From: an uncultured Candidatus Competibacteraceae bacterium
GTDB lineage: Bacteria; Bacteroidota; Bacteroidia; CAIKAF01
Assembly (NCBI GenBank): GCA_964545365.1
Contig: CAZJFM010000005.1
Location: 12,462 to 72,089, forward strand
Direction: 5' to 3'
Length of the DNA: 59,628 nucleotides
In this document: positions 1-53,424 of the stretch, piece by piece
Layout of the letters: each line of letters begins with the position of its first letter
How positions within the stretch are numbered: position 1 is the stretch's first letter
The notes under the pieces: model-generated
Told to the model about the DNA's origin: nothing
Database searches by the model: none
Seen by the model: the letters and a program-made list of their open reading frames with translations, nothing else
Translations under genes and position numbers: made by a program

Positions 1-69
1 CGTGCTCCTTTTCTGGGTTCTGCCCTAAGATCAGCCATGGCCAAAGGTAGAAAATTGACTTAGATAGAC

Positions 70-215
70 GCGGCCCGGCGGCGCCGGAAACCCCGCAGTT
101 TGGGCAGCCGCCTCGGCTTGGGCAGCGGAGGCTGAGGAACGAAGCCCACGCAGGCCCTAGCCGGGCGTGCTGCCCAAAGTAGGAGTTGCAGGCAGAGACG
201 GAAAAGCCGCCCAAA
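70..215 (-). repeat. Palindromic interspersed element, copy 1 (divergent)
   Basis: Stem TTTGGGCAGC 99-108 pairs with GCTGCCCAAA 169-178, with inner arms 109-123/154-167. On the minus strand it begins TTTGGGCGG and ends GGGGTTTCCGGCGCCG, similar to the other copies. Confidence 0.6.
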
Positions 216-231
216 GCCATTAAGGACTTAC

Positions 232-3314: not shown

Positions 3315-3342
3315 TTCGGCTCCCTTTTCTGATTTTTTTTGA

Positions 3343-3489
3343 TTTGGGGCGCCGGGCGGGCTTTCAGGCTTCGGGCCAAACGCTTGGCAAAGGCAGGCTA
3401 AGCCTCCGGTAGTTCCGCAAAGCTCCACTTCCTCGGCCAAGCCTGCTTAAGCCAAGCTTTTGGCCGCTCCCGCCTTCAATCCCTGCGCC
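3343..3489 (+). repeat. Palindromic interspersed element, copy 2 (loop type GTTCCGCAAAGCT)
   Basis: Starts TTTGGGGCGCCGGGCGGG. Stems 3374-3399/3440-3465; loop GTTCCGCAAAGCTCCAC 3412-3428; ends ATCCCTGCGCC. Confidence 0.8.
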
Positions 3490-3674
3490 AATTCTAAACT
3501 TTAGACCGCTTTCTTTGGAATTTATTTAACAGCTTTTTTGCAAACTAGGCTTCGCTTTCCCTGCGGCCTGCGTATTTTTGCTATGAAGCAAGCCTAGTGG
3601 GCAAGCAAAAGCAAAAACAGATGCAACTTAGCCAAACTCGGGTTTGAGCAAAGGAATATAAATACAGATTGCGC

Positions 3675-7858: not shown

Positions 7859-8072
7859 CTTGGGTGGGGGACGAAGAAGTGCCCTGCAGGGGATCTGTGG
7901 GGCCTTCTTTCCTTACATCTCAAAAGCTTGGTTGGTTGGTTTAGGCTTTTCTGCAGTGCACTTTGCCTGCAGAAAGCCAGTCACGCCCGCACTCTTCGCT
8001 CTCTTATATATGCCGCATACCTTTTCATGCGGGCGTGCCTGGCTTTAACGTGAGGTTTGATTTGTTCGCAAA

Positions 8073-8104
8073 AAAAATGCCCTGCGCTGGCGCAGGGCAT
8101 TTTT
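8073..8104. terminator. Bidirectional intrinsic terminator
   Basis: AAAAATGCCCTGCG-CTGG-CGCAGGGCATTTTT between convergent ssb and yceI. Confidence 0.85.
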
Positions 8105-8124
8105 GTGCAAAACAATCTACTGTA

Positions 8125-11439: not shown

Positions 11440-12636
11440 ATGGGAAAATTCCTTTTTTGGCTGTGTTTGTTGTTGGTGTTTGGTTCCGCCCGGCAATTAT
11501 CCGCCCAAGATGCGCTATACACCATTCGAGGTGAAATTATTCCTTGTTATGTAACAGAAGTTAGCGCCACAGACATCATTTATGAACCGACCGAGGGGAA
11601 TTCGGTGGGTAGCAAGGTAATTATTCCTATTGGAGAGGTCAAGCGCATTGTGTTTGAAAATGGTTTAGAGCAATCTTTTGAAAATACGGCTCCGGTAGAA
11701 GGCCCCTACCCCAACGGCAAACAGAGCAAAGACCAACCGGACAAAGTGGTGCTAACCAATGGAGAAGTACTTATTGGGGAGGTGGTAGAAAAAAAACGAT
11801 TTGGCATTACCTTCATTCCTAAATCTTTGGATGGAGCACCTGCCGAGTATATTCCCAACAGCAAAATTGCCCGAATTGAATGGGGCGAAGGGCAAGTGGA
11901 ATACATAAACCCGGGAAAAGAAGAAAGCAATCCAAAGAACTTTGACTATTTGAACCCGCATTTTGTTTCGGTAGCCACAGGAGTAGCCTTGCCCATAGCT
12001 TCTTTTGGAGAAACTCAGTTTTCAGGACTTCCACCGGGTTTTGCCACGGCCGGCTGGCAAATAATGGGAGAAGCCACCTATTATTTGTATCGTGGCATGG
12101 GTTTTTCGGCCATGGGTGGGTATATTTTAAACCCCAGCAACAATCAACCCTATAGGGATCAAATTAGCAACTCCTTTTTTAGCCCTAGTGACTCTACCGC
12201 TTCGGTGAGCTCTCTTTCCGAAGGCGTTTGGCAGCATAGTTTTGTAGCAGGGGCTTTGGGGTATTATTATGAGTCGGAACGCTTTATGTTGGACTCCAGG
12301 TGGATTGTAGGTGCCCTGTTTTCCAGTTACCCGGTTATAGAAGCCGAAGGTACTGCATCGGGAGAATCATTTAACTTAAAGGTAGAACGAGAGTCCAGTC
12401 CTTCGGTTATGTTTGGGGCTGCAGTAACCGGCCGGTATTTTTTGACCCGCAAATGGCAGTTGCGCTTTGGGTTTCAGTTTTTGACCAGTACGAGGACCTT
12501 TAATCAAACGGTAGCCTACAAGACCTTTTCAGACGGAACAGTGCAAGAGAGTGTTCCAACAGGTTCGGGAGTTTCTAGAGAATCCTTTGGAGTGATAAGC
12601 CTGGAAGTTGGAGCCGCCTATACCTTGGGGAAATAA
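11440..12636 (+). CDS. Secreted protein: two tandem beta-rich N-terminal repeats plus probable C-terminal outer-membrane barrel
   Basis: Signal peptide; repeat pattern D---T-GE-----V-E; amphipathic beta strands; ends AYTLGK. Confidence 0.75.
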   Translation: MGKFLFWLCLLLVFGSARQLSAQDALYTIRGEIIPCYVTEVSATDIIYEPTEGNSVGSKVIIPIGEVKRIVFENGLEQSFENTAPVEGPYPNGKQSKDQPDKVVLTNGEVLIGEVVEKKRFGITFIPKSLDGAPAEYIPNSKIARIEWGEGQVEYINPGKEESNPKNFDYLNPHFVSVATGVALPIASFGETQFSGLPPGFATAGWQIMGEATYYLYRGMGFSAMGGYILNPSNNQPYRDQISNSFFSPSDSTASVSSLSEGVWQHSFVAGALGYYYESERFMLDSRWIVGALFSSYPVIEAEGTASGESFNLKVERESSPSVMFGAAVTGRYFLTRKWQLRFGFQFLTSTRTFNQTVAYKTFSDGTVQESVPTGSGVSRESFGVISLEVGAAYTLGK

Positions 12637-12655
12637 ATCCATAGAGTTAGCACCG

Positions 12656-12779
12656 GGCCTTGGGGCTGAGCCGAAAAGCCCGGAGCAGCAAAGCTTAGGG
12701 ACATAGGCACTGAGGATGCGGCGCGCAGCAAGCACCCGGAAGGCTTATGGCCCTTAGCTTTGGGGCGAGGACTTGGAGG
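12656..12779 (-). repeat. Palindromic interspersed element, copy 3 (loop type GCTTGCTGCGC)
   Basis: Reverse complement matches 20027-20150 at 105/124 positions (hand count) with a 34-nt identical core. Confidence 0.92.
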
Positions 12780-12875
12780 GGAGGCCCTTGTGCTAGACAA
12801 AACAAAGTTTCTTTAGTTTCAATACCGATGGTGTAGCCAAAGAACCTCCATTGGTGTAGGGACCAAAGCGAAATC

Positions 12876-13355
12876 TCAGGCCCCCAAAGCCAAAGTAAAA
12901 AACGGAGAGGGGAGTTTTTCTGAGGGTAGGTGGAGCCGCATTTGCAAGCCGTATTCGTGGCTTTTGCTCAAGCAATTGGGCAAGGGACGGTGCAACTTTT
13001 CGGGGCCCAACCAAAGGTTCAGTCCAGCTGCCTGTACTGTAGCAATAGCAGCGAAAGGAGTACTCCACACCTGGGCGAGCAAGGCTGTTTCGGTTGCTTT
13101 GTGCAGCAAGTGAACGCTTGGCCCATTGGCTTTTTGCAAAACAAACTGTGCCGGGTGGAAGGTTGCCGTTTGAAGGGTTTCGGGCAAGGCTTTCCAAGCG
13201 GCTTCTTTTGCTACAAATACCAAAGCGGCGTTTAGGCGGCCGGTAGTAGCTGCTGGTTTTTCGGGAAGCACGCGGGCAAGCTGTGCTGTATTGGGCAGGA
13301 ACCAAGACAGGTAGGGACCTGCGGCGGGTAAAAAATCAATGGCCGGACGAAGCAC
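12876..13355 (-). CDS. Divergent AcpS-type 4'-phosphopantetheinyl transferase
   Basis: FVAKEAAWKA matches the F/W-x-x-KEA-x-x-KA motif. Follows the ACP gene; probable GTG start at 13355. Confidence 0.55.
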   Translation of the reverse strand: MLRPAIDFLPAAGPYLSWFLPNTAQLARVLPEKPAATTGRLNAALVFVAKEAAWKALPETLQTATFHPAQFVLQKANGPSVHLLHKATETALLAQVWSTPFAAIATVQAAGLNLWLGPEKLHRPLPNCLSKSHEYGLQMRLHLPSEKLPSPFFTLALGA

Positions 13356-13599
13356 CGGCTTGGGACAAAATGAGGTCGATGGCTTGCCCAACGGTTTGCA
13401 GGGCCTCCGCCGCTTCGTCGCTGATTTCTATATCAAACGCTTCTTCCACATCCAAAACCACGTCAATCATGTGGGCGGAGTTGATTTTAAGGTCTTTGAG
13501 AAAATCGGAACCTTCGTCCAATTGAGTAAGCAATTCGGCTTCGGGTACGTAAGGCCTTACAATTTCGACCAGTTTTTCTGCTACGGCACTTCTTTCCAT
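13336..13599 (-). CDS. Acyl carrier protein
   Basis: Acidic; DLKINSAHMIDVVLDVEEAFDIEI with the putative phosphopantetheinyl Ser; TVGQAID. Confidence 0.93.
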   Translation of the reverse strand: MERSAVAEKLVEIVRPYVPEAELLTQLDEGSDFLKDLKINSAHMIDVVLDVEEAFDIEISDEAAEALQTVGQAIDLILSQAGASSGH

Positions 13600-13619
13600 A
13601 GCACAAAAATAGGGAAAGA

Positions 13620-14906
13620 TTAGCGCTTCTCTTCCCATTTGCGCAAAAGCAGTACCGCATTTACGTCGCCGAAGCCAAAGCCGGATTTTGCAATAATCTT
13701 AAGATTTGGAACCTTAACAGCGGTTTTGGGTACGGCCTTTTCGGGAAGGATATCGGCAATATCGGGGTGCAGTGGCATGGCATTAAGGCTTGGATGGATA
13801 TAGCCTCCACGAAGTTGTAAGAGGCAGGCCACGGCCTCGATGGATCCGGCAGCGCCCAAGCAATGGCCAATCATGCTTTTGGTGCTGTTGATATAGGGGA
13901 AGCTTCCCTGAGCTATGTTGAGTGCTTTTTGCCAGTTCTTAACTTCTTTGGGGTCGCCCATGGTTGCGGTAAGGTGTCCGTTGATGGCGTCTACCTTGTC
14001 TCCGGTAATTTGGGCATCTTGGAGTGCCATTTGCATGGCCCTTACGACGGCTTCGGAGTTTGAGGCCGTCATGGTTCCACCTTGGAGTTGGCCACCGGAG
14101 TTGATGGCTCCTCCCAAATATTCTCCCAAGATGGTAGCGCCTCTGGATTGGGCATGTTCGAGGGATTCAAGCACCAGGGCGCCTGCGCCCGCTCCGGGCA
14201 CAAAGCCTGCTGCCCTGGAAGAAAGGGGTGCGGAAGCTTCTTCGGGATGACCATTTGCCTGACGGACCAAAACGCGCATGCTGTCAAAGCCTCCCCAAAC
14301 ATAGGGGCCTTCGGAGTCGCAACTGCCGGCCAGCATGACCTTTGCTTTGCCTTGGCGGATGCGTTCGGCAGCCAAAATGATGGATTCTGTGCCGGTAGCG
14401 CAGGCCGAAGAGTTGGTGGAGCATTGGTTTCCCAGGCCAAACATACCGCAAAGCCAAGCCGAAATACCGGAGGCCATGGTTTGTTCTACGACCCGTGAGC
14501 CAAGTTTGCGGACTTTCCCCTCATCGACTTTATAAATGGCTTCTCGAAGGGGTTCAACTCCGGAAAGACCGGTTCCAAACTGTGTTCCGGCATCGGCCCA
14601 GGGCGCTTGCCCAACTTCGGGGAAAGGCAAGCCGGCCATTCTCCAGGCTTCTCTGGCAGCCAAAAGACCATATACCAGGCCTGAGCTGGTTAAGAATCTA
14701 CGGGTTAGGGGATCAAATTCCGCTTGGAGTAAATCCTCTTGAATAGGCGGAACTGCGCTTATTTGGCAAGCAAAGCCCAAGTCAACCAGTCGCGAATCCG
14801 GACGTACGCCGGACCTACCTGCACGGAGGGCTTGGTCAAAATCAGAGCAACCAATGGCGTTGGGAGCAACTACGCCCATGCCGGTAACGACAATTCTTTG
14901 ACTCAT
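13620..14906 (-). CDS. fabF: Beta-ketoacyl-ACP synthase II (cluster-specific)
   Basis: VVTGMG, ACATG (Cys), NGHLTAT and GHCLGAAG (two His) and SGFGFG motifs. Confidence 0.93.
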   Translation of the reverse strand: MSQRIVVTGMGVVAPNAIGCSDFDQALRAGRSGVRPDSRLVDLGFACQISAVPPIQEDLLQAEFDPLTRRFLTSSGLVYGLLAAREAWRMAGLPFPEVGQAPWADAGTQFGTGLSGVEPLREAIYKVDEGKVRKLGSRVVEQTMASGISAWLCGMFGLGNQCSTNSSACATGTESIILAAERIRQGKAKVMLAGSCDSEGPYVWGGFDSMRVLVRQANGHPEEASAPLSSRAAGFVPGAGAGALVLESLEHAQSRGATILGEYLGGAINSGGQLQGGTMTASNSEAVVRAMQMALQDAQITGDKVDAINGHLTATMGDPKEVKNWQKALNIAQGSFPYINSTKSMIGHCLGAAGSIEAVACLLQLRGGYIHPSLNAMPLHPDIADILPEKAVPKTAVKVPNLKIIAKSGFGFGDVNAVLLLRKWEEKR

Positions 14907-15388
14907 GGGTTAGAGAACATGCCGGAGAGGGTGCCGGCGCATATTTTTTTTCCGTCTTGATTAAACATGGCCACCTTGCATTGCAGTTTACGCAAGCGAA
15001 AATATTCTTTTTGAGACTCGACCCAGACTTGATCACCGGGTCGCACCATTTTATGGAATTGAACGTTGGAGGAGGTAAAGAATATGCGTGCTGATTTTAG
15101 GACCAAGGGGTCGGCGCCACACAAATAAACCCCTAAAGAAACCAGTCCGATTTGGGCCATGGTTTCGGTAAGAATTACCCCCGGTGTAACCGGAAAATCA
15201 GGAAAATGTCCTTGGTAAAAACTTTCGTTGGATTTGTAGGTGTAGGTACCCACCACATGGTTTTCATCGATAGACAAGATGCGATCGATAAAACGAAAAG
15301 GGCTTTGTTGCGGAATGCAAGCTAGAATATTTCCGGCCAGCGTTTCGTCGGGAGATTTATATAGTTCTTCAGATAAGCGTTTCACCAC
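14903..15388 (-). CDS. fabZ: 3-hydroxyacyl-ACP dehydratase (FabZ/FabA hotdog fold)
   Basis: PQQSPFRFID and GHFP--PVTPGVILTETMAQ motifs. Confidence 0.92.
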   Translation of the reverse strand: MVKRLSEELYKSPDETLAGNILACIPQQSPFRFIDRILSIDENHVVGTYTYKSNESFYQGHFPDFPVTPGVILTETMAQIGLVSLGVYLCGADPLVLKSARIFFTSSNVQFHKMVRPGDQVWVESQKEYFRLRKLQCKVAMFNQDGKKICAGTLSGMFSNP

Positions 15389-16151
15389 CGTCCACTGGGA
15401 TTATCGCACCATTGATCCAATTGGCCTCTTGGCGGGAAAGCAAATATACAACATTCGCTACATCCTCCGGTGTGGTGAGTCGTTGTACTGGATGCAATTT
15501 ACGTACTTCTTCTATTTTTTGATCGATGCCCGGCAACACCTTAAGGGCCGGAGTAGGTGTGATACCTGCCTGAATAAGGTTAGTTCTAAGCCCATATTTA
15601 AAAAATTCAGCGGCCATGTACCTGCCTAAGCTTTCTAGGGAAGCTTTGGCCATGCCAATAGCTGCATAGCCGGGCAGACTTCGACTGCTTCCCATGCTTG
15701 TAAAGGCCAAATTAGCCGCTTGAGGGGCGAAGAACCCCAGTTGAAGGGCCTCACGGCTCCATTCCAGCCAGTTTAGAGCCATGGCCTCCCAGGTTAGGCT
15801 TAGGTCCTTGGCCGAAAGCTCTTTCCCTTGACCTTCGGCCCATAGTATACCCGGAGTGCCTCGCGAAATCGAATGCAGCAACAGACCAAGCTTTCCTTTG
15901 GCTTCCTGCATAGCTTCCCAAATCTCCGGACGGGTTTCTGCACTAAGGGCATTGGTATTTATGGGCACCAATTGCGCACCAAAAGTTTCCTTCCATTCGT
16001 CTACAAGTGCTCTATGGGGCGCGCGCCTTTCTCGGTACACCGCCCAAACCTTCCAACCCTTAGAGGCCAGCTTTTCGGCCGAGGCCCTTCCCAAACCGGA
16101 AGAAGCCCCAAGTATCAGGGCGTGCTTTTCTTGTGGGGCATTTATGTCCAT
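15369..16151 (-). CDS. Enoyl-ACP reductase-like SDR (FabL/FabI type)
   Basis: GASSGLG; Y-x6-K catalytic spacing (YAAIGMAK); PVDGG. Start ATG 16151 overlaps the PKS stop. Confidence 0.85.
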   Translation of the reverse strand: MDINAPQEKHALILGASSGLGRASAEKLASKGWKVWAVYRERRAPHRALVDEWKETFGAQLVPINTNALSAETRPEIWEAMQEAKGKLGLLLHSISRGTPGILWAEGQGKELSAKDLSLTWEAMALNWLEWSREALQLGFFAPQAANLAFTSMGSSRSLPGYAAIGMAKASLESLGRYMAAEFFKYGLRTNLIQAGITPTPALKVLPGIDQKIEEVRKLHPVQRLTTPEDVANVVYLLSRQEANWINGAIIPVDGGETLI

Positions 16152-17209
16152 CTCAACAAAATATTTTGAGCAGAGAAACCCGGACCAAAGCTCAGCATGA
16201 GTCCTGTATCTCCGGCAGCAGGTTGGCTTTGCTGACAAGCATGCAAAACAAAAAGAACCGTAGCCGAAGACATGTTGCCGTAGGTTTTTAGAACCTCACG
16301 GGTAAAGCGCATGTCCTTGCCAAAAGGTTCAATGAGCGCCTCTACCATTTGAATGATTTTTTTCCCTCCCGGATGAAACACAAAGTGGTCTATTTCTTCT
16401 ATGCTGAGTCCATGTTTGGCCAAAAAAGGAGGCAAGATATTGGGAAAGTGCTTTTCTATGGTTGTGGGGACCTCCGGGTCTAACACAATATGCAGGCCCG
16501 ACTCTTTTAAGTCGAAACCCATCATACGGGTTTCGTTAAAAAAGTGGTACATGGCGGAATCTACCAAAGTCGGCACCCCCGGTCTTTGGTCGTCGGGGTG
16601 CGTAGAAACTAAGGCACTTGCCAAGCCATCGCCAAAAATAGCTGCCGACACAATATTGGTAAAGCTGTAGTCGTCGTACTGAAAGGTAGACGTTGGGGAC
16701 TCAAAGGCTAAAACCACGGCACGTTTACCGGGTTGGTTGGCCAACAGCTCTCTGGCATACATCAAACCTGAAGTCCCGCCTGCACAGCCCATTTCTGTTA
16801 TGGGCATTCGAATTACATCGCCTTTAAAACCTAAGGCATTGACCAAGTAGGCATCCAAGGATGGGATCATAAGCCCGGTGCAGGAGGTGGTAATGAAGTA
16901 ATCTACCTGATTGGCTTTGAGCTGCGCATTCTTAAAGAGTGTTTCTAAATTGGCTTCGGCTAATGGAATCATCTTTTCCATAAACCGGTCGTTTCTTTTG
17001 GCGAAACTTTCTCTTTGAAACACTTCGTGGGCAGGCATAATAGAATAGCGGGCATCTACCCCTGCATTTCTAAATATACGGCGTGCCTTTTGGAGGTCTC
17101 GCTCACTCCGCCCTTGCATCCACGACTCCACATACTCCATAATCACAGGCAATGGCTCTGAATAAGGAGGCAGAGTTATAGAGGTAGCAAGTATGTGTGG
17201 ATACATCAT
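16142..17209 (-). CDS. Type III polyketide synthase
   Basis: Cys-His-Asn triad: MGCAGG, FHPGG and YGNMSSA; also FGDG and FGPG. ATG at 17209 overlaps the methyltransferase stop. Confidence 0.95.
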   Translation of the reverse strand: MMYPHILATSITLPPYSEPLPVIMEYVESWMQGRSERDLQKARRIFRNAGVDARYSIMPAHEVFQRESFAKRNDRFMEKMIPLAEANLETLFKNAQLKANQVDYFITTSCTGLMIPSLDAYLVNALGFKGDVIRMPITEMGCAGGTSGLMYARELLANQPGKRAVVLAFESPTSTFQYDDYSFTNIVSAAIFGDGLASALVSTHPDDQRPGVPTLVDSAMYHFFNETRMMGFDLKESGLHIVLDPEVPTTIEKHFPNILPPFLAKHGLSIEEIDHFVFHPGGKKIIQMVEALIEPFGKDMRFTREVLKTYGNMSSATVLFVLHACQQSQPAAGDTGLMLSFGPGFSAQNILLRWT

Positions 17210-17949
17210 AGGTGTTGGGTAGTTGCTGAAAAAATCATTCGGCCGGGCAGGGCTTTCTTTTTTAATTCCCAAGAGTTCCAACCGGAATTTTCGGCCATGA
17301 AAATCCAGTCATTTCTTTTAAAAGAACGCAAAATGGACAGTGCCCCATCGTGCCGGGAAACCTCAGATAGGCCCAGCACAAAGCTAAGCAATCGGAAGCC
17401 ATAGAAGCTTAGGGGACGTCGCTCCAAATCGTCCCAAATCATCCCAAGGCGCAAATGACTTCGTGCACATGTCCAAAGCTCAAGGATTTCGGAGTTCCTC
17501 AAATGGTGCAAAAACAGGCTTCCCACCAAAACATCAAAGGGACCTTGGGCGGCGAGTACCCGTTCTGCTTTATCTTGCACCACCCGGGCTTGATTGCTTA
17601 GTCCGGCTTTAGCCAGCTTTTCTTTTGCCAAAGCACAGGCCAAAGGATCTACATCCACGGCCGTCCACTCCCATGACAAATGATGTTTTTGCGCCTTTTT
17701 CAAAATGGCAACCATAGATGCCCCTGAGCCACTTCCGCATTCTAAAATACGCAATGGTTTATGGGCATGCTCCTTGGAAACACGAACTAGGGTTTGAAAA
17801 AGGGTTTCATAAACGCCCATAAAGCGATTGATACGATCTATTTCTTGGTAATTGAGTCGCTTTTGGCTTTCGGAAAGTCCGAGGTCCATCCATTCGGGGC
17901 CCGGGTGCCTGCTTCCAAAATCAGGTGAATGGGGCAAGAGGCTTTCCAT
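17206..17949 (-). CDS. SAM-dependent methyltransferase
   Basis: ILECGSGSG motif I, FLHH, WDDL-R and HDG--SI-RSF motifs. Confidence 0.88.
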   Translation of the reverse strand: MESLLPHSPDFGSRHPGPEWMDLGLSESQKRLNYQEIDRINRFMGVYETLFQTLVRVSKEHAHKPLRILECGSGSGASMVAILKKAQKHHLSWEWTAVDVDPLACALAKEKLAKAGLSNQARVVQDKAERVLAAQGPFDVLVGSLFLHHLRNSEILELWTCARSHLRLGMIWDDLERRPLSFYGFRLLSFVLGLSEVSRHDGALSILRSFKRNDWIFMAENSGWNSWELKKKALPGRMIFSATTQHL

Positions 17950-19057
17950 GGCTCTGTTTGATAAGTTGGTGTGTAATGGGAGGCAAAACCGCAGCTGTAC
18001 CTAAGGCCAGTTCGGTGAGCAGCGTTCCACCAAAAAGCCCTTGCATGGTTTTTCCAAAGCGCAATCGACCCTGAATCTGGGCATTCCAAGCAGATTGATA
18101 ATGGCTAAGAGCTGCTTTCCTAAGCTGCGGCTTTGCCTCAACCGAGCGAAGGGCCTCCAACCATAAACGGGCACTCCGAATGGCCAGGGCCATGCCGTTG
18201 CCACTTAATGGAGCAATAAGCCCGGCAGAATCGCCAAGCATGGGAAGCCCTTGAGTTATGGCTCCTCTGGCACTGAAACGCACTCCTGATATGGCTTGCG
18301 GCTTTTCCCAAACTTTTTTACTCTTTCTTAGCAATTGTTCCAAATGCGGATTTTGACTCAACACATTTTGTTCCAATGCTTCCACCCCACCGGCTTTCTT
18401 TACGGTTGAGGTACGGACTAAATAACATAAGTTCACCAAACCTGTCTCGGTTTGGGAAACCCCGGCATAGCCCCCTTTAAAATTATGCAAGGCCACCAAA
18501 TCGGTTGACCAATCGGCTTCCAAATGCCACTTAATTCCGGAATACAAGGTGCCTTCACGCAAAAAAGAGCGGTTAAGTTGCCGATCAGGCTGTCCAAGTT
18601 TTCCATAGGCCATAATGAGCCAATTGGCGCTGTAGGTCCCATTTTTGCTTCGAACCACATACCCCTCTTTCTCCAATTCAAAGCCCAAATAGGGCTCTTG
18701 AAGAGCCACTCGAACCCCTGCAGCTTCGGCTTTTTGATACAAATAGTAATCCATAGCCCAGCGGCTTAAGCCTAAACTTTCTTGATCTAAATTGGCCTGC
18801 AAGGCACGGCCAGATGGAGCACTTAACCATAGTTTTTTGATGCGCGCCGGATTCAAGGACTCAAAATCTACGTCCAAGCTTTTTAAAAAAGGTAGGACTT
18901 CACCACTAATAAACTCGCCGCACACCTTATGACGCGGCAAATTTCCTTTTTCGAGCACCAATACCTTAAGGCCCATTTGGGCCATACCAATGGCTGAGCT
19001 TAATCCTGCCAAACCTCCGCCTACTACCAAGGCATCGTAATGATGGGTTAGATTCAC
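17921..19057 (-). CDS. FAD-dependent oxidoreductase (aromatic hydroxylase/geranylgeranyl reductase family)
   Basis: VVGGGLAG, HKVCGE and GDSAGLIAPLSGNGM motifs. GTG start at 19057 overlaps the upstream TGA. Confidence 0.9.
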   Translation of the reverse strand: MNLTHHYDALVVGGGLAGLSSAIGMAQMGLKVLVLEKGNLPRHKVCGEFISGEVLPFLKSLDVDFESLNPARIKKLWLSAPSGRALQANLDQESLGLSRWAMDYYLYQKAEAAGVRVALQEPYLGFELEKEGYVVRSKNGTYSANWLIMAYGKLGQPDRQLNRSFLREGTLYSGIKWHLEADWSTDLVALHNFKGGYAGVSQTETGLVNLCYLVRTSTVKKAGGVEALEQNVLSQNPHLEQLLRKSKKVWEKPQAISGVRFSARGAITQGLPMLGDSAGLIAPLSGNGMALAIRSARLWLEALRSVEAKPQLRKAALSHYQSAWNAQIQGRLRFGKTMQGLFGGTLLTELALGTAAVLPPITHQLIKQSHGKPLAPFT

Positions 19058-19635
19058 TCCTGCAAATTTACGCAAGCCCGAGAAAGCGTTAGCGTCCAGT
19101 CTTGATGAAGCCTTAACCCGGTTCCCAAATATACAGGCTCGCCCATGGGCAGCGTCCAATACGTAGATAGCATCATGGGAACCGAACCGGGCGCCTGCCG
19201 AGATCCAGCCATGGCTTCTCCCAAGCGAAGTAAACTTCCCAAGCTAAGTCCCCGGTAATGTATTTGGCAAGGATACTCCTGCTGCATTACCCATGCTCCC
19301 TGAAGCAATTTATCTATAATGGCTCTTGGTACCTGCGCCTCCACATGCAACAAAAGACTGTCTTCAAAAACCGAACCGGTTTGTGGAGCCCAAGCTTCAG
19401 AACGATTGGCATCCGCTCCAAAAGCAAGGGTTCTTACCCAAATGTCCAATCGTTCGCTACCCGAGGACCAACGCACCAAACTTTGGGAACTGCGCCAAGG
19501 CCCTTCCCCGCCGGCAAGCAACTCTGCACCCGACCGGCACTCAAAACCACCCGGGTCCGATGGCCATTGACCTCTTACTGATCCAAACGCCAATAAAACA
19601 AAGCATATGGTTGCAAACCAAGTCGTTGATTTCAT
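19054..19635 (-). CDS. Secreted hypothetical protein, first gene of the PKS operon
   Basis: Signal peptide (MKSTTWFATICFVLLAFGSVRG); its stop overlaps the start of the next gene (GTGA). Confidence 0.7.
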   Translation of the reverse strand: MKSTTWFATICFVLLAFGSVRGQWPSDPGGFECRSGAELLAGGEGPWRSSQSLVRWSSGSERLDIWVRTLAFGADANRSEAWAPQTGSVFEDSLLLHVEAQVPRAIIDKLLQGAWVMQQEYPCQIHYRGLSLGSLLRLGEAMAGSRQAPGSVPMMLSTYWTLPMGEPVYLGTGLRLHQDWTLTLSRACVNLQE

Positions 19636-19974
19636 GTAAATTCAAAGGTCTGTATATTTAAGCTAATCCCCCATTTTGTTAAGAAAGTTTACCACTTGCA
19701 TCGGTAGCTTATCACTTACATACCCTGCAGACTCAGCTTTGTTTCATCAAAAAAATCAAAGATTTAAGCCATGGCCATGCCAAAGAGCATCCAAACCTGA
19801 AATTCCTATTGAAGGGGTCAAAAACGGCAGTATTTACCTAAAAAAGCCGGCTGGGCGGCGCGCGACTAAGCGGCCACAGGCCTGGTGTTAAAAGGCATAA
19901 GTTGCCCCCGCTTCTTTATTGCCTGTTTACTTGCCTTCTTTTGTTTATTGAATTGCTTGCTTGGCTTAAGGGTA

Positions 19975-20150
19975 TTTGGGGCCCCAAGTGCGTTGCTCAA
20001 CAAAAAGGATTTTGCACGGGTATCCGCCTCCAAGTCCTCGCCCAAAGCCTAAGGGAGGCAAGGCTTCCGGGTGCTTGCTGCGCGCCGCATCCTCAGTCCC
20101 TGCCTCCCTAAGGCTTGGTGCTCCGGGCTTTTTGGCTCCTCCCCAGGGCC
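19975..20150 (+). repeat. Palindromic interspersed element, copy 4 (loop type GCTTGCTGCGC)
   Basis: Starts TTTGGGGGCC; 20027-20150 is about 85% identical to the reverse complement of 12656-12779. Confidence 0.92.
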
Positions 20151-20186
20151 TTCGTTACATTTAGCTTCTTGAGCTAAGCCAAATTA

Positions 20187-22079
20187 TTAGCTTTCAAATT
20201 CCAAAGACCCTCCACCGGTATGTTTCACATATCCTTTAGCCACCCAGTCTTCCAATACATGCCTTTGCCCCTCAGCCAAACTTGGATATTTAAACAACAA
20301 CTCTTCCATTCTCCAATGCCGCTTTTCATTTTTCACCTGACTTAACAAATGTTGAGGGGGGGCTGCTTTCTTAAGTCTTAAGCACACATCACAAACCCCA
20401 CAGGGCTTAGGCGCTTCTTGCCCAAAATACCGTATAAGCGCCACAGAGCGGCAACAATTTTCCTGAAAGGCATAGTCCAAAACGGCTTGCACCTTTTTTT
20501 TGAGTATTTGTTTCCTTTCCGAATAAATTTCGGGAGGCAAAACAAGATTTTTGGCCGAGGGGAGTTCATTCCGTGTTTTAAGCCAAAGCGTTCCTTTTCC
20601 GGGGTCTAAAATGTGCAATGCCTTAAATTTCTCCAACTCCTTTAGCAACACTTCTGCTTGCTTCTGCCGATAGCCACTGCACCATTTTTGCAGCCTTTCT
20701 TTTTTAACGGGCATTCGGCTTTCCATAATTCCTACCGATCTCCGCATGAGCTTTTCGGCCAAATCCAAGGCCTCCTCAGAAATGTTCATAGATCGGAGGG
20801 CTTGGGGGCTTCCATTCAGCTTTAAGTAATAGCAATCTGTTTTGAGTTCGGGGAGTTCCCAATAGCCGGCTTGTTCCATAAGCTTAAGAACGGCCATACA
20901 TTCTTGGGAACTGCAGCCGCAATCCTGGGCCAAACCGGAAAGCTTTAGCTCCATCCAACGTCCTGGCGCCGTGCCTTCGACCAAATGATGCCTATGCATG
21001 ATGCGTTGCACCACCTTTCGAATCAAAACCAGTGGAGGAAAGCGTTGGTTCAGATGTTCCAACAGACGATGGCGGTCTTCTGAGTTCACTATAGCCAGTG
21101 CCCTGGCGGGGGCCTCGTCTCTTCCTGCCCTACCTGCTTCTTGAAAATAAGCCTCTAAAGAATCCGGCAAATCCAAGTGCGCCACTGCCCGTACATCCGG
21201 CTTGTCGATGCCCATTCCAAAGGCATTGGTAGCCGCCATTACGCGGGTATTTCCTTTAATCCAAGAAGCTTGCCGTTCGCTTCGTTGCTGAGGGTCTAGT
21301 CCCCCATGATAAAAAGAGGCCGAAATGCCGCGTCGATTAAGCCATTCGGCCACCCACTCGGTCTTTTTTCTGTTTCTTAAATAAACTACGGCGCTACCGG
21401 GAGTTCGAGTTAAAAAAACCTCCAAACGCTCAAGCTTGTTATCGGAGCGTACTACAGCATAGCACAAGTTAGGACGCTCAAAACTCTTACTGAACACCCT
21501 GGCCTCCTTTCCAAAGGCCAGTTTTTCTTGCATGTCTTGCACCACTTCCGGAGTAGCCGTAGCGGTTAAGGCCAGCACCGGAACTTTAGGTAGCCACTCC
21601 CTGAGTTTGGCAATATGCAGGTAACTTGGCCTAAAGTCATAGCCCCATTGAGAAATACAGTGGGCCTCATCTACGGCAATTAGCCCAACCGGCACCTTTT
21701 CTATCCATTCCAAAAAATAAGGATTTTGAAGGCGCTCCGGAGAAACGTACAAAAACTTTAGACTGCCATCAGCCGCCTGACTCATCCACTGTTCAGCGGC
21801 CGCGCGGCTTTGATGACTGCTTAAGGTAGCGGCTGCAATTCCTCTTTCCTTTAAGTTCTGAACCTGGTCTTGCATCAAGGCAATCAAGGGCGAAATCACC
21901 AAGCACAGACCGGGGCGCATAAGGCCCGGAACTTGAAAGCAAATGCTTTTACCACCTCCCGTGGGCAGCAATGCCAAAGTGTCATTTCCTTCTGCGGCAT
22001 GCCGAACAATATCTTCTTGCAAAGGCCTAAAGGACTCGTAGCCCCAGTAATGTTTGAGGAGTGCTTGCGGTTCTTGCAT
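20187..22079 (-). CDS. recQ: RecQ family ATP-dependent DNA helicase (no HRDC domain seen)
   Basis: LPTGGGKSICFQ, DEAHC-SQWG-DFR, QEAGRAGRD and C-terminal Zn-binding Cys residues. Confidence 0.95.
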   Translation of the reverse strand: MQEPQALLKHYWGYESFRPLQEDIVRHAAEGNDTLALLPTGGGKSICFQVPGLMRPGLCLVISPLIALMQDQVQNLKERGIAAATLSSHQSRAAAEQWMSQAADGSLKFLYVSPERLQNPYFLEWIEKVPVGLIAVDEAHCISQWGYDFRPSYLHIAKLREWLPKVPVLALTATATPEVVQDMQEKLAFGKEARVFSKSFERPNLCYAVVRSDNKLERLEVFLTRTPGSAVVYLRNRKKTEWVAEWLNRRGISASFYHGGLDPQQRSERQASWIKGNTRVMAATNAFGMGIDKPDVRAVAHLDLPDSLEAYFQEAGRAGRDEAPARALAIVNSEDRHRLLEHLNQRFPPLVLIRKVVQRIMHRHHLVEGTAPGRWMELKLSGLAQDCGCSSQECMAVLKLMEQAGYWELPELKTDCYYLKLNGSPQALRSMNISEEALDLAEKLMRRSVGIMESRMPVKKERLQKWCSGYRQKQAEVLLKELEKFKALHILDPGKGTLWLKTRNELPSAKNLVLPPEIYSERKQILKKKVQAVLDYAFQENCCRSVALIRYFGQEAPKPCGVCDVCLRLKKAAPPQHLLSQVKNEKRHWRMEELLFKYPSLAEGQRHVLEDWVAKGYVKHTGGGSLEFES

Positions 22080-29242: not shown

Positions 29243-29278
29243 ACCTCCTTCCTAAAGCACTCTTTTTTTGGAAGACCT

Positions 29279-29429
29279 GCGCCAGGGGGCGGCACGGATA
29301 CCCCCAAGCCTGCAGAGGTTGGGGCGACAGGCCAGGCCGAGTGTAGCTTTGCGGAACTCCGGACTTGCCTAGACGCCCCCCTCTGAAGGCTTGGGAGTAG
29401 CAGGGAGCACCCGCCCGGGCGCCCAAAAA
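29279..29429 (-). repeat. Palindromic interspersed element, copy 5 (loop type GTTCCGCAAAGCT)
   Basis: Stems 29303-29326/29374-29395. GTGTAGCTTTGCGGAAC at 29341-29357 is identical to 40627-40643. End GCGCCAGGGGGCGGCACGGATA matches copy 10 at 19/22. Confidence 0.85.
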
Positions 29430-29446
29430 TCAAAAAACGCTATTGC

Positions 29447-32634: not shown

Positions 32635-32702
32635 ATCTCGCACTGCAAACTTAGGCAGCATTTACCAAACAAGCGCAATACCCGATAGAGGTAAAAGGAA
32701 TA

Positions 32703-32849
32703 TTTGGGGGCCAAACGGGCTCTCGCCCACCGGGCGGGCGGCCAAAGGCTGTGCGGCTAAGCCTGTGGTGGTTTGCTTAGGCTCCACCTCCTCGGCTAAG
32801 CCGCACATGCCTTTGGCCGCCCGCCGCTCCAGGGCTCCATCCCTGGCCC
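32703..32849 (+). repeat. Palindromic interspersed element, copy 6
   Basis: Ends ATTTGGG...CCCAAAT; perfect 14-bp stem 32736-32749/32809-32822 plus 9-bp stem 32750-32758/32799-32807; loop GGTTTGCTTAGGCTCCACCTCCTC. Confidence 0.85.
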
Positions 32850-32957
32850 AAATCATCTTCCAAAACATGCACGCCGTACCGAAGTTAATTTTTAGGCTTT
32901 CCCTTGCCGCTTATGCCAAATAGCCCTGTAAAAGGCCTAGTTGATGTATATTTGTAC

Positions 32958-39056: not shown

Positions 39057-40490
39057 ATGTCTGAAAATCTCAAAGGGGTATGGGAGCGGTGTCTGCAAAT
39101 TATTCGTGACAATGTGAGTCCGCAAAGCTACCAAACCTGGTTTGAGCCCATCCGTCCTGTTAAGTTAGAAAAACAGGTGCTCACCATTCAAGTTCCCTCT
39201 CAGTTTTTTTTCGAATGGCTAGAAGAACATTACATTACGCTCCTTAAGCACACCGTAAAAAAAGAATTAGGCCCTGAAGGAAGACTGGAGTATTCCATAA
39301 TTATGGAAAACAGCTACCATGCCCAAAAGCCCTACACCATAAAGGTGCCTACCAGTGAGCAAAAAGCAGTACGTAACCCTCAGGTTAGCATGCCTTTGGA
39401 CCTCAGTTCCGACCATCCCATCAAAAACCCTTTTGTAATTCCCGGGCTCAAAAAGGTACATATTGAATCCAACCTAAATCCCAATTACGCATTCGACAAC
39501 TTTATTGAAGGCGATTGCAACAGGTTAGCCAGGTCTGCCGGCTATGCCGTAGCACAAAACCCCGGAGGAACTTCCTTTAACCCCCTGCTGATTTATGGAG
39601 GCACCGGATTAGGTAAAACCCACCTATCCCATGCCATTGGAATAGAAATCAAAAAGAATTTCCCAAACAAAACCGTCCTTTACGTTCCTGCTGAAAAGTT
39701 TACTACCCAGTTTGTAGATTCTATTAAAAACAATACCTCTTCTGACTTTGTAAATTTTTATCAGCTTATTGATGTCCTCATTTTGGACGATGTGCATATT
39801 TTAGGAGGAAAAGAAAAAACACAGGATGTATTTTTCCACATATTTAATCATTTGCACCAAAGTGGAAAACAAATCATCCTAACCTCTGACAAACCACCGG
39901 TTGACTTGCAGGGTATGGAACAACGCCTGCTTTCTCGATTTAAATGGGGGCTATCTGCGGATTTACAAGTGCCCGAGCTGGAAACCCGGATCGCTATTCT
40001 GCAAAAGAAACTGTACAACGACGGCATAGAGTTGCCCGAAGAGGTCGTAGAATATTTGGCATACTCCATCACCACCAATGTTCGGGAACTCGAAGGTGCA
40101 CTTATTTCATTAATCGCTCAATCCTCCTTAAACCGCAAGGAAATTACCTTGGATTTGGCGCGTAAAATGATTGACAAGTTTGTAAAAAACAATGCGCGAG
40201 AAATTTCCATTGAGTATATCCAAAAAATGGTATGCGACTACTTTGACATGCCCATGGATTTAATGAAATCTAAAAGCAGAAAACGAGAAGTGGTGCAAGC
40301 CAGACAAATTGCCATGTACTTTTCCAAAGCTTTTACCAAGTCTTCTTTAGCCACCATTGGTGCGCACTGCGGCGGAAAAGACCATGCCACCGTGTTGCAT
40401 GCCTGCAAAACGGTGAACAACCTAATGGAAACCGACAAGCAGTTCAGGGCCTATGTAGACGACCTGGAAAAGAAAATAAGCCTGTACTAA
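39057..40490 (+). CDS. dnaA: Chromosomal replication initiator
   Basis: NPLLIYGGTGLGKTHL, DDVH, RL-SRF-WGL, NVRELEGAL and KDHATVLHA motifs. Confidence 0.98.
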   Translation: MSENLKGVWERCLQIIRDNVSPQSYQTWFEPIRPVKLEKQVLTIQVPSQFFFEWLEEHYITLLKHTVKKELGPEGRLEYSIIMENSYHAQKPYTIKVPTSEQKAVRNPQVSMPLDLSSDHPIKNPFVIPGLKKVHIESNLNPNYAFDNFIEGDCNRLARSAGYAVAQNPGGTSFNPLLIYGGTGLGKTHLSHAIGIEIKKNFPNKTVLYVPAEKFTTQFVDSIKNNTSSDFVNFYQLIDVLILDDVHILGGKEKTQDVFFHIFNHLHQSGKQIILTSDKPPVDLQGMEQRLLSRFKWGLSADLQVPELETRIAILQKKLYNDGIELPEEVVEYLAYSITTNVRELEGALISLIAQSSLNRKEITLDLARKMIDKFVKNNAREISIEYIQKMVCDYFDMPMDLMKSKSRKREVVQARQIAMYFSKAFTKSSLATIGAHCGGKDHATVLHACKTVNNLMETDKQFRAYVDDLEKKISLY

Positions 40491-40521: not shown

Positions 40522-40550
40522 AAAAGCCCGAAGATATCGGGCTTTTTTTT
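40522..40550 (+). terminator. Intrinsic terminator after dnaA
   Basis: AAAAGCCCGA-AGATA-TCGGGCTTTT followed by a T-run. Confidence 0.85.
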
Positions 40551-40562
40551 GAAAGAGATGTT

Positions 40563-40712
40563 GGGCCCCTGATGGAGGCAACTAACCCGCAAGCACCGGG
40601 GCCTTGGCTTTACGGCCTTTGGGCGTGTGTAGCTTTGCGGAACGCCGCCCGGAGGCACGAAAGCCGGCCTCGGGACTGAGGATTAGTGCGGACAGCAGGA
40701 TTAGGCCCCCAA
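40563..40712 (-). repeat. Palindromic interspersed element, copy 7 (loop type GTTCCGCAAAGCT)
   Basis: 17-nt exact match to the copy 5 loop. On the minus strand the ends are TTGGGGGCC...GGGCCCAA, with imperfect long arms. Confidence 0.8.
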
Positions 40713-40715
40713 GGA

Positions 40716-41552
40716 TTAAGCATTCCTATCTTCTGGCACCATAAGCATGGGCAAGCGGGCCTGCATGGCCAAGTTTCGGGTGGTGCTTCCTTCAAACAGG
40801 CGATCGAGCCAATTTTTGCGTTGGGGCACCATTACCAATAGGTCGGTGGGATTGTCAAGCAAATACAACTCCAGCCCTTCGGAGGCCGAATCGGCAGTAA
40901 TTTCGCGCAGCTTCAGATTGGTTTGCGGGAACTCCGTCTGAAGTGCTTCCAAAAGCGGAGTATTGGCCTGTAAATCCAGCTGCAAATTCGCATTCACATG
41001 CAGCAATTCCACCTCAGCCTTAAAGGGAAGCAACAAACCGAGGGCATGCGCCAAAGGTTTGCGGTCGTCGCGCTCCAACTCAGTGGCAAAAAGCACCTGT
41101 TTGGGGTCAAAAGGCCCGGATTTTTCAGGTATAAACAGCATGGGAATCTTGATTCGGTGCAGCAAGTGGGTTGCATTAGATCCAATAAGTCGTTCCAAAA
41201 CCCCGCTGGCTCCGGTGGTTCCCATTACCAATAGCTGAGCTTGGCTCTCCTTCACCTGATCTTCTAAGGTATCTGCTACAAAGCCGTCCAAAATTTTGCC
41301 TTCTACCTCTATGCCATGTTGTTTTACTAAAGCCAACCGCTTGTCCATGGCCTCCCGAGCTCCTTTAAATAAAACCTGATGCGCATCGGCGGCATAACCC
41401 AATGGCCCAACCGCATCCACCATAGGCACATGGACCACATGCACCAAGAGCAAGGACATGTTGTGTGCCTGAGCAATGGAAATGGCAGCATCTAAGGCTT
41501 TGTCGGCGGTTTGAGAGAAATCTAAGGGAACGAGAATGGGTGCTTGAATCAT
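40716..41552 (-). CDS. Universal stress protein (two USP domains)
   Basis: ILVPLDFS, LLVMGTTGASG----IGSNA and DLLVM motifs. Confidence 0.93.
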   Translation of the reverse strand: MIQAPILVPLDFSQTADKALDAAISIAQAHNMSLLLVHVVHVPMVDAVGPLGYAADAHQVLFKGAREAMDKRLALVKQHGIEVEGKILDGFVADTLEDQVKESQAQLLVMGTTGASGVLERLIGSNATHLLHRIKIPMLFIPEKSGPFDPKQVLFATELERDDRKPLAHALGLLLPFKAEVELLHVNANLQLDLQANTPLLEALQTEFPQTNLKLREITADSASEGLELYLLDNPTDLLVMVPQRKNWLDRLFEGSTTRNLAMQARLPMLMVPEDRNA

Positions 41553-46440: not shown

Positions 46441-46480
46441 ACTGTCATTTTGTCATTCCGGCTCGATTGCAACTGCCATT
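46441..46480 (-). promoter_or_regulatory. ATGACA direct repeats upstream of clpB, candidate heat-shock operator
   Basis: Minus strand reads AATGGCAGTT...AATGACAAAATGACAGT, 80-120 nt upstream of the ATG. Confidence 0.45.
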
Positions 46481-46638
46481 TTTTCAGGGGCCTTTTCCGG
46501 CCTTTGGCTTTACGTCCCTCCGGCAAGGCATGGGTGGCGCGGTTTCCGGGGTTTCCTCCTAAGGTCGGAACCTCCTCAACCTGCGCCTCCCAAAGCCTTG
46601 CCGTTCGGCACGGTACCGCCGCAGTCCGGGGCCCGCGC
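46480..46638 (+). repeat. Palindromic interspersed element, copy 8 (divergent)
   Basis: Stem CGGCAAGGC 46521-46529 / GCCTTGCCG 46595-46603 and inner TGGGTGGCGC/GCGCCTCCCA; loop TCCGGGGTTT...CCTCCTC resembles copies 2 and 6. Confidence 0.7.
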
Positions 46639-46710
46639 AATTCAATCTTCACAAAAAAAACATGCGCCTTACGCGAACTCATTCCACGCGTCTTTCCGTA
46701 TTTTGAGGCC

Positions 46711-48060
46711 ATGAACATTCACTTCATAGCTATTGGAGGAGCAGCCATGCACAATTTGGCCTTAGCGCTCCACCACCAAGGCCACCACATTAGCGGATCC
46801 GACGATCAGATATTTGAGCCTTCACGTTCTCGATTGAAGGCCGCAGGATTACTTCCCATCCGTGAAGGTTGGGATCCTCAAAACATCCATTCCCAATTGG
46901 ATGCCGTTATTCTAGGCATGCATGCCAAGGCCGACAACCCCGAGTTGCTCAGGGCACAAGAACTGCAGCTACCCATTTATTCGTATCCGGCCTTTGTACG
47001 ACAGCAAACCCAACATAAAACACGCCTTGTTGTTGGTGGGAGTCATGGAAAAACCACCACCACCTCCCTTCTCATGCATGGACTCAAAGGCCTAAATCAA
47101 CCCTTCGACTATCTGGTGGGTGCACAAATAGAAGGCTTTGAGCGCATGGTGGACCTAAAGCCGGAACACCCTCTTGCCCTTTTGGAGGGCGACGAGTATT
47201 TAGCCTCTGCCTTGGAACCCGTCCCTAAATTTCATCTCTACGAAGCCCATTTGGCCATGTTGACGGGTTTGGCTTGGGACCACGTTAATGTATTTCCAAC
47301 CGAAGACAACTACAAGCAACAATTCCACCACTTTATAGACACCCTTACACCGGATGCAAGCCTTATTTATGCCGAAGAAGATGTGGCATTAAAAGCTTTG
47401 GTAGAGGCCCACCCTCGGGCTGACGTTAAAAAAATCCCCTACCAAACCCTGCCTTGGAAGCCAACCGAAACAGGGCTTAGCCTACAATTCGAAGGAAAAG
47501 AATATAAGCTGCCGATCCGAGGCGCACATAACGTTCAAAACCTCAGTGGAGCACTAAAGATTATTCAAGCTTTGCAACTGGACCCTCATGCTTTTTTAAG
47601 TCAGCTGCATAATTTTAGCGGAGCCGCCAGAAGAATGGAGTGTCTATTGGACCTTCCTGAAAAAAACTTCACCGTTTTCCGTGATTTTGCCCATAGTCCA
47701 TCTAAGGTTAAAGCTACCGTAGAAGCCATTAAGTCTAGCTACCCCAACAGGAGGTTTGTAGCCGCCTTAGAGTTGCATACCTATTCAAGCCTAAACCCCG
47801 ACTTTATTCCCGGCTATAAAGACAGTTTGGCACCCGCCGATCAAAGTATGGTCTTTTACGATCCCAAAGCTTTAGCTATTAAGGGCCTCCCTCCTTTATC
47901 TCCTGAGGCTATAGCCAAGGCATTTGCCTTAAACAATGGTCAAGTAGCCTCCGAAACCATGGAATTAGAAACTTGGAAAAACAAGCTAAGTACCCAAGAT
48001 TGTGTTTGGCTGCTTATGAGTAGCGGAAATTGGGGAGGGCTAAGCTGGCTGGATTTATAG
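46711..48060 (+). CDS. mpl: Murein peptide ligase (Mpl/MurC-like)
   Basis: MNIHFIAIGGAAMHNLA, GSHGKTTTT, EGDEY, DHVNVF and DFAHSP motifs. The upstream ORF extension from 46264 is spurious. Confidence 0.9.
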   Translation: MNIHFIAIGGAAMHNLALALHHQGHHISGSDDQIFEPSRSRLKAAGLLPIREGWDPQNIHSQLDAVILGMHAKADNPELLRAQELQLPIYSYPAFVRQQTQHKTRLVVGGSHGKTTTTSLLMHGLKGLNQPFDYLVGAQIEGFERMVDLKPEHPLALLEGDEYLASALEPVPKFHLYEAHLAMLTGLAWDHVNVFPTEDNYKQQFHHFIDTLTPDASLIYAEEDVALKALVEAHPRADVKKIPYQTLPWKPTETGLSLQFEGKEYKLPIRGAHNVQNLSGALKIIQALQLDPHAFLSQLHNFSGAARRMECLLDLPEKNFTVFRDFAHSPSKVKATVEAIKSSYPNRRFVAALELHTYSSLNPDFIPGYKDSLAPADQSMVFYDPKALAIKGLPPLSPEAIAKAFALNNGQVASETMELETWKNKLSTQDCVWLLMSSGNWGGLSWLDL

Positions 48061-53415: not shown

Positions 53416-53424
53416 TTGTTTTTA

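Follow-up and report, generated by a model that had tools for sequence, protein, structure and literature searches.

Elements at the locus

The window analysed here is a 59,628-nucleotide (nt) stretch of contig CAZJFM010000005.1 from an uncultured Bacteroidota lineage, and its intergenic DNA carries a previously undescribed family of long hairpin elements that is lineage-specific, dispersed and present in at least 10 copies in the window. Two of these elements, copy 3 and copy 4, bracket a minus-strand type III polyketide synthase (PKS) cluster (13336–19635), which itself lies outside the elements. Copy 3 (12643–12813, plus strand; cmsearch 142.9 bits, E = 5.5e-37; core about 12650–12793) is located between the PKS cluster and a convergent gene of 398 amino acids (aa; 11440–12636), and begins 7 nt past the stop codon of that gene. 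Copy 4 (20002–20163; cmsearch 139.3 bits, E = 5.4e-36), whose family orientation is on the minus strand, follows a RecQ-like gene (20187–22079) and begins 24 nt past its stop codon. The segments 12656–12779 and 20027–20150 of these elements are the sole long inverted pair of their kind in the window: each is 124 nt long, they are 85% complementary and the two arms are separated by 7247 nt.

The anatomy of the elements is described in the orientation of the plus strand of copy 3, which equals the minus strand of copy 4. Each element is ~145–170 nt in size, GC-rich and palindromic, and either of its strands can form a single long hairpin. An outer GC helix (e.g. CCGGC.../...GCCGG) encloses a basal box helix of 5–6 bp (AAG-C-CC/GG-A-CUU), which holds a fixed C·A mismatch (U·G or T·G on the other strand) and is adjoined by a purine-rich internal loop. 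The box helix is formed by the 5' box GRAAAGCCCGGA and the 3' box GAGGACTTG, the latter being followed by the closure of the outer helix and by the unpaired CCAAA(A) tail that ends the element. Above the boxes stands a long helix of up to ~35 bp in which the sequence is free and the pairing is kept, capped by a conserved 12-nt apical loop, GG[A/C]GCGCAGCAA.

In copy 3, the 5' basal box AAAGCCCGGA, found by pattern match and invariant in 24 copies, occupies 12675–12684, and the 3' basal box GAGGACTTG, assigned from the pattern and covariation, occupies 12767–12775 and pairs with the 5' box to leave the C·A mismatch. Folds and covariation place the arms of the long variable helix at 12685–12719, where the compensatory positions discussed below are found, and at 12732–12766, and the alignment places the conserved loop GGCGCGCAGCAA at 12720–12731 (all on the plus strand). 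The corresponding minus-strand features of copy 4 are the 5' box at 20122–20131 and the 3' box at 20031–20039 (both pattern matches), and the loop at 20075–20086, which reads TTGCTGCGCGCC on the plus strand and was assigned from sequence and alignment.

The initial annotation of this pair, which described an identical 34-nt apical core, proposed that stem pairing is maintained, by selection or by hairpin-templated copying, while the loop is recognized by a protein or nucleic acid. Its count of 105 matches over 124 positions is exact when made ungapped, and the core, CTTCCGGGTGCTTGCTGCGCGCCGCATCCTCAGT, occurs exactly twice, at 20064–20097 (plus strand) and 12709–12742 (minus strand), with no match in any of 100 shuffles. 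When the folds are set side by side, the arms GGAGGCA/TGCCTCC of copy 4 and GGCCATA/TATGTCC of copy 3 differ by the three double changes described (G-C to C-G, G-C to A-U and C-G to U-A); the same arms also hold one one-sided change, which produces a C·U mismatch in copy 3. The folds equally contain a fourth double change nearer the loop (a G-C to C-G swap), an extra C-G pair on both arms of copy 4 and an A·A mismatch retained in both copies within CTAAGGG/CCCTAAG. As RNA, both arms fold into the same hairpin of ~90 nt at -54 to -65 kcal/mol, with z-scores of -3.0 to -3.4 on three strands of the two copies and -1.8 on the fourth, and the same hairpin forms as single-stranded DNA with z-scores of -1.6 to -2.0. 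The differences between the copy 3 and copy 4 types are fixed in all three related genomes, and therefore predate the split of those genomes.

Extent of the family

A scan for stable folds and GC peaks finds about ten long GC-rich hairpins in the intergenic DNA of the window (56–62% GC versus ~48% for the window), several of which share words with copies 3 and 4. The family was then defined by a three-motif pattern, AAAGCCCGGA-N25-45-GCGCAGCAA-N30-60-GGACTTG, and by a covariance model built from 24 distinct copies and applied with a cut-off of E < 1e-6 for window elements; labels such as L005, L024 and L043 denote compared loci outside the window. The pattern has three matches in the window and 22 among 185,579 species genomes, all 22 in two sister metagenome-assembled genomes (MAGs), JAUHWY01 and JAGYKD01. 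Among 241 million metagenome records it yields one true extra copy, on a metagenome contig (L043), while a further match (L042) was rejected as an AT-rich chance match. The covariance model identifies 10 elements in the 59.6-kb window, about 1 per 6 kb, and has no matches in the distant PKS loci or across ~480 kb of sequence drawn from 79 further species, most of them Bacteroidota. The pattern has no match in viral contigs, the family has none in plasmid or phage collections, and an exact search with the 34-nt core returns only the orthologous pairs in the two MAGs. Copies 3 and 4 are members of a dispersed family rather than partners in a special two-copy relationship.

This family is restricted to one deep-branching, rarely sampled Bacteroidota clade. 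The window lies within the 87-kb scaffold KOPF15-1 scaffold_223 of a marine-type metagenome assembly (ENA ERZ23491156), and the two MAGs, whose labels read Bacteroidia or Flavobacteriales, align collinearly with it at nucleotide identities of ~83–97% (JAUHWY01) and ~67–98% (JAGYKD01) per 250-nt segment. The nearest RecQ outside the clade is 48% identical, which indicates an isolated lineage with no intermediate relatives.

Rfam gives no match on the window at gathering score, and at E <= 1 only chance-level matches of miRNA precursors to the hairpin near position 32.7 kb, with nothing relevant to the family; no tRNA or tmRNA genes were found in the window. Assemblies of strains that are 99% identical break inside the elements, which supports their repeat nature, and all six Logan contigs with the 398-aa gene end at window position 12738, within the shared core.

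Several subfamilies can be distinguished. A third window copy of the copy 3/4 subfamily, identified by both the pattern and cmsearch (53656–53827, plus strand), has the same boxes and loop with different stems, and other window subfamilies carry different apical modules, such as GTAGCTTTGCGGAAC in three window copies. A short form of 110 nt is also present at L037:2423–2532, with an ortholog at L043:2826–2934. It keeps the outer helix and both boxes and has a few bases in place of the long helix; a full-length copy is found ~450 nt away, the two being in inverted orientation.

Covariation and constraint

In the alignment of 24 copies, 19 of the 28 base pairs predicted by RNAalifold carry double changes. 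Paired bases fill 93.6% of the cells, compared with 71.3% after shuffling (0/500 shuffles as high) and 27–53% when the partners are slid by 1–3 columns. Double changes are found in 148 cells, compared with 45.6 after shuffling (0/500 as high) and 23–40 after sliding by 1–3 columns. A model-fitted alignment of 44 hits, which leans towards the structure of the model, gives 92.6% paired versus 65.5%, with double changes in 26 of 28 pairs. Stems thus covary while the sequence of the boxes and loop is conserved, and the inverted modules pair into one hairpin, as in REPINs. In other subfamilies the pairs of the box helix change jointly (G-C to A-U to C-G; A-U to U-A), so that these pairs covary between subfamilies (A-U/U-A/G-C/C-G) at 99% pairing, and the mismatch stays or turns into U-A in two copies.

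On these data the maintained pairing of the initial annotation stands, with selection and hairpin-templated copying both as candidate causes: covariation is present in the larger alignment, and the loops are less variable than the stems. What changes is the definition of the loop. Only the 12-nt loop is conserved family-wide, and the rest of the 34-nt core covaries in other copies, so the core is best described as this loop plus an upper stem that copies 3 and 4 happen to share. Conserved sequence is likewise found in the loop, as proposed, but is not confined to it: the two basal boxes, AAAGCCCGGA and GAGGACTTG, lie outside the stems originally described and are equally conserved. The same data bear on the view that the two copies resemble each other as a neutral relic of an old duplication, their pairing being unconstrained. 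That the 34-nt core is common to only two copies would suit such a view, to which we assign a practically negligible probability; it is refuted by the covariation controls, in which no shuffle reaches the observed pairing and slid partners pair at only 27–53%, and by conservation above that of the coding flanks.

The latter is seen in orthologous copies, which occupy the same sites in all compared genomes. Ortholog element cores are 0.90–1.00 identical, compared with 0.84–0.94 for their mostly coding ±2.5-kb flanks, and the core is more conserved than the flanks in 13 of 14 comparisons. Orthologs are nearer to each other than to paralogs, which argues that gene conversion between copies is not the cause of this conservation. 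With gene conversion excluded, conservation above the flanks implies that resident copies are under purifying selection. Constraint acts on the copies at their resident sites, and they change at a slower pace than the coding DNA next to them.

The types of stem change differ between orthologs and paralogs. Among 50 changed stem pairs between orthologs, 18 are one-sided changes that keep pairing, 23 are one-sided breaks, seven are compensatory doubles and two are double breaks. Between close paralogs (L035 versus L024, L035 versus L029 and copy 3 versus copy 4), doubles account for 13 of the 23 stem pairs that changed, in a set of comparisons that is small and non-independent, two of them being drawn from four ~90%-identical JAUHWY01 copies. 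This contrast fits a filter for foldability during propagation combined with slower, single-step evolution in place.

Gene context and tests of mobility

The elements abut gene ends and often occupy an entire intergenic gap. They are single, scattered among housekeeping genes and present in both orientations, and convergent junctions are enriched, with four to five of the approximately ten window elements. Cmsearch and context place members at a convergent junction just downstream of dnaA (40550–40723, plus strand) and in a convergent gap that is filled by the element (29266–29437, plus strand; E = 1.7e-09), and a more distant member (53414–53619, minus strand; E = 6.8e-07) is located between convergent genes, head-to-head with the copy at 53656–53827. 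Divergent-gene positions are occupied by two minus-strand members: 32692–32862, found by the fold scan and cmsearch, which is the strongest hairpin of the window at -84 kcal/mol per 120 nt, and 46473–46647, between clpB-like and Mur-ligase genes (cmsearch, context). Other copies lie in tandem gaps in either orientation. Some are co-directional with both genes (L024, L026 and L036), while others are antisense to both (L039/L032 and 3333–3502, a minus-strand member between two plus-strand genes; E = 1.5e-07). A further member (56–223, plus strand; E = 1.3e-11) is found upstream of a maf-like gene. Intergenic siting, abutment to gene ends, convergent enrichment and the use of both orientations together make a context typical of REP (repetitive extragenic palindromic) sequences and of MITEs (miniature inverted-repeat transposable elements).

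The main rival to a mobile-repeat origin is a cis-acting RNA element, present in multiple copies, whose function is confined to transcripts, where it might be a barrier at the 3' end or to processing, a stabilizer, an insulator or a site for an RNA-binding protein; it would be kept purely by host selection and not be mobile at present. We regard this as possible, though clearly the less probable account. A structured RNA is marked by just this combination of covarying stems with conserved loop and box, and a host-kept element would accommodate copies that are more conserved than their coding flanks and stable at orthologous sites with no polymorphism. Several copies also fill the whole convergent gap and leave no room for another terminator, and on one strand the fixed mismatch takes the form of a U·G wobble, with A-U in its place in two copies. 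A transcript-only role, however, sits poorly with the mixed orientation of the copies, including those antisense to both neighbours (3333–3502; L039/L032) or between divergent genes. Folding energy and G·U content show no consistent preference for a strand: the alignment count of G·U pairs favours one strand and per-sequence folds the other, and half of the G·U excess stems from the single fixed box mismatch. There is also no Rfam match, and the origin of ~100 or more copies would be left unexplained.

Transcript termination was considered in the same context. Element ends read TT...CCAAA, the reverse of the terminator layout; no U-tract follows the hairpin, and the terminator scan places no terminator-like site on copy 3 or 4. 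The convergent gap between the SSB and YceI genes (7861–8115) holds two long hairpins unmatched by the family model (7861–7915 and 7973–8046) and a canonical bidirectional terminator with an A-run, a GC stem and a T-run (8062–8115), a layout opposite to that of the elements.

The elements might also act at the level of DNA. BIME/REP elements, for example, are sites for gyrase and IHF. The family might likewise consist of cruciform or hairpin binding sites for a chromosome-organizing or topology protein, with the half-sites AAGYCC...GGRCTT as contacts. The elements are orientation-independent and strand-symmetric, carry conserved inverted half-sites at the hairpin foot, are spaced fairly regularly in the window (about 1 per 6 kb) and are conserved in place. 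Even so, this account is quite improbable: the conserved apical loop is asymmetric and would not be exposed in duplex DNA, covariation demands intrastrand pairing and hence extrusion or single-strandedness in vivo, and the binding protein is purely putative.

Likeness to known systems and interpretation

REPINs are REP doublets that form hairpins and are mobilized by REP-associated tyrosine transposases (RAYTs), which belong to the Y1 HUH type and are encoded by a single-copy gene that the repeats flank. The family resembles them in being high-copy, extragenic, lineage-specific and vertically persistent, with copies near gene ends. Like REPINs, the elements form long hairpins, of at least ~100 nt, whose ends are conserved and whose spacer often carries compensatory changes; such changes are reportedly common in the hairpins of REPINs (PMC3116915). 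The family differs from REPINs in the lack of a GTAG/CGTC tag and of a recognizable REP unit of 20–40 nt, in its conserved apical loop and its basal box with a fixed mismatch, and in its host, which is an uncultured Bacteroidota lineage rather than a member of the Proteobacteria.

The MITEs that form RNA hairpins (Correia/NEMIS, ERIC/IRU, YPAL/RU-2, RUP and BOX) share with the family a length of 100–170 bp, palindromy of the whole element, terminal inverted repeats (TTGGGCGCC...GGCGCCCAA in the family), small size without coding capacity and positions near stop codons. Those MITEs are AT-rich whereas the family is GC-rich, and its stems have diverged far beyond typical young MITE families with pairing kept; the data compared include no target-site duplication, cognate insertion sequence or insertion polymorphism. 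The attC sites of integrons also conserve structure over sequence, pair foot boxes that contain an unpaired or mismatched base and vary in the length of the terminal stem-loop (compare the 110-nt short form). Unlike in attC sites, however, the apical loop is conserved, the boxes AAAGCCC/GGACTT depart from RYYYAAC/GTTRRRY, copies are single and in both orientations rather than in co-oriented cassette arrays, and no integrase is present. Intrinsic bidirectional terminators are likewise GC-rich hairpins between convergent genes, but the family has its flanking runs in reverse order (T before, A after), stems that are 3–5 times longer and conserved internal motifs, and its copies also lie between divergent genes. 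The family therefore fails the defining tests for REP sequences (the tag), MITEs (target duplication and polymorphism), attC sites and terminators, and works most like a REPIN.

The explanation that we favour, with slightly more confidence than doubt, is a structured palindromic repeat of the REPIN/MITE kind that is read at its box and loop and retained by selection, with copies 3 and 4 as old, diverged members. As non-autonomous DNA, the family would have spread by way of a single-stranded hairpin, an intermediate recognized at the box and loop by a putative trans-acting, sequence-specific protein. Only foldable copies would propagate, and this is the proposed reason that compensatory pairs dominate between paralogs. 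Established copies would then be kept because so stable a hairpin has a use at its site, the most plausible being that of a barrier where the transcripts of tightly spaced and frequently convergent genes end.

Several points weigh against this explanation. The 24 aligned rows represent about 13 independent loci, with orthologs inflating the sequence counts. No direct repeats are found at the boundaries of the 24 copies, where there is no empty site to fix the exact ends, and no insertion or empty-site polymorphism is seen among the three related genomes or the 99%-identical strains. Five sets of strain-level contigs contain only occupied sites or breaks inside elements and no empty site, and four JAUHWY01 copies have no JAGYKD01 match, the corresponding JAGYKD01 sites being outside the comparison. 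Neither the window nor the 10 neighbouring proteins tested yielded a transposase or RAYT. The GTAG/CGTC tag is absent from the hairpin foot in all 24 aligned copies, GTAG being present only inside the apical module of one subfamily. The role as a transcript barrier is a guess, and the strong conservation in place is unlike a purely selfish, decaying MITE.

Surrounding genes and other features

The minus-strand cluster between the two arms encodes an acyl carrier protein (ACP), a ketoacyl synthase, a FabA-like protein, a short-chain dehydrogenase/reductase, the type III PKS, a methyltransferase, a FAD oxidoreductase and a secreted protein of 193 aa. The 398-aa and 193-aa proteins that adjoin the copies are secreted or outer-membrane-like and have no family match. 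A core of seven genes, all of these but the one for the 193-aa secreted protein, is conserved in distant Bacteroidota that lack the element. This block (13336–19159; L007–L023) is found in MAGs labelled Owenweeksia, Schleiferiaceae and other Flavobacteriales, and partly in Saprospira/Saprospiraceae; the type III PKS is 49–54% identical across the MAGs carrying it. The block resembles a pathway of the alkylresorcinol type that brings its own enzymes for the fatty-acyl starter.

From ~11450 to 20700, a tract that takes in the 398-aa gene, the PKS cluster and the 3' end of RecQ, identity to JAUHWY01 jumps from ~83% to 96–97%, and identity to JAGYKD01 is ~92–93%. This suggests a recent interspecies exchange or unusually strong constraint. 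The tract also bears on whether the PKS cluster is carried by a composite transposon, or by a cassette able to invert or excise, with the arms as its terminal inverted repeats. Copies 3 and 4 are each other's closest relatives, are inverted and bracket the conserved cluster core at a distance of 7.2 kb, and the 11.45–20.7-kb region has its high identity to JAUHWY01 against ~83% outside. But the tract extends past both arms, by ~1.2 kb on the copy 3 side and ~0.5 kb on the copy 4 side, the orientation and position of the cluster are identical in all three genomes, the family is found at eight other, unrelated window sites and no recombinase was found in or beside the segment. The cassette is thus very unlikely and was rejected on account of the tract edges, which lie off the repeats, and the uniform orientation.

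A plus-strand open reading frame (ORF) of 340 aa lies between the cluster and copy 4 in JAUHWY01 (L005:6600–7620), where it converges on copy 4 and RecQ. The window (19702–19964) and JAGYKD01 contain only remnants of both of its ends, which indicates that a deletion of ~700 nt removed this ORF; copies 3 and 4 would then both have been originally located at convergent junctions. On the other side of the cluster, the ~520 nt between copy 3 and the ACP gene (12814–13335) contain no called gene. A 171-aa ORF (12876–13391) has only a sub-threshold match to 4'-phosphopantetheinyl transferase and may be a decaying gene.

A second repeat family is found at the very end of the scaffold (59543–59612) and consists of 35-nt tandem units with a short hairpin, GAGACGGRAGGCATTCCGTCTC, interleaved with heptamer runs of the CATCATT type. 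It also adjoins four of the JAUHWY01 copies of the main element (L024:3740–4000 and the L029 and L035 flanks). The dnaA gene (39057–40490), which is directly followed by a family member, contains a weak Rfam match to AsdA (E = 0.01). An EgtD/EgtB-like (ergothioneine) gene pair is located at 48055–50412. The cumulative GC skew, partly confounded with gene strand, peaks at ~14000–16000 and declines over the remaining window; the peak may mark a replication-related switch.

Significance

Most work on palindromic repeats of intergenic DNA has concerned Proteobacteria and a small number of pathogens, and in most cases it is unclear whether such a repeat is parasitic or of use to the genome. The family described here offers an unusually clean natural experiment, in that its stems have diverged almost completely while the pairing, the mismatch box and the loop are fixed. 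It makes directly testable which features are read by a partner, and whether selection acts in place or during copying. The repeats also carry practical weight: metagenome assemblies of the lineage are broken by them, and two of them flank a polyketide gene cluster that species have apparently exchanged.

A more far-reaching proposal, and an unlikely one on present evidence, is that the family is the substrate set of an undescribed recognition system, with about a hundred sites per genome held under purifying selection rather than decaying as MITEs, and with a partner that reads the mismatch box and the 12-nt loop. If this were true, a dedicated protein or RNA would read the T·G/C·A mismatch and the loop while leaving the stem sequence free, and the family would represent either a new type of single-strand recombination or transposition site outside RAYT systems and integrons, or a new genome-wide RNA regulon.

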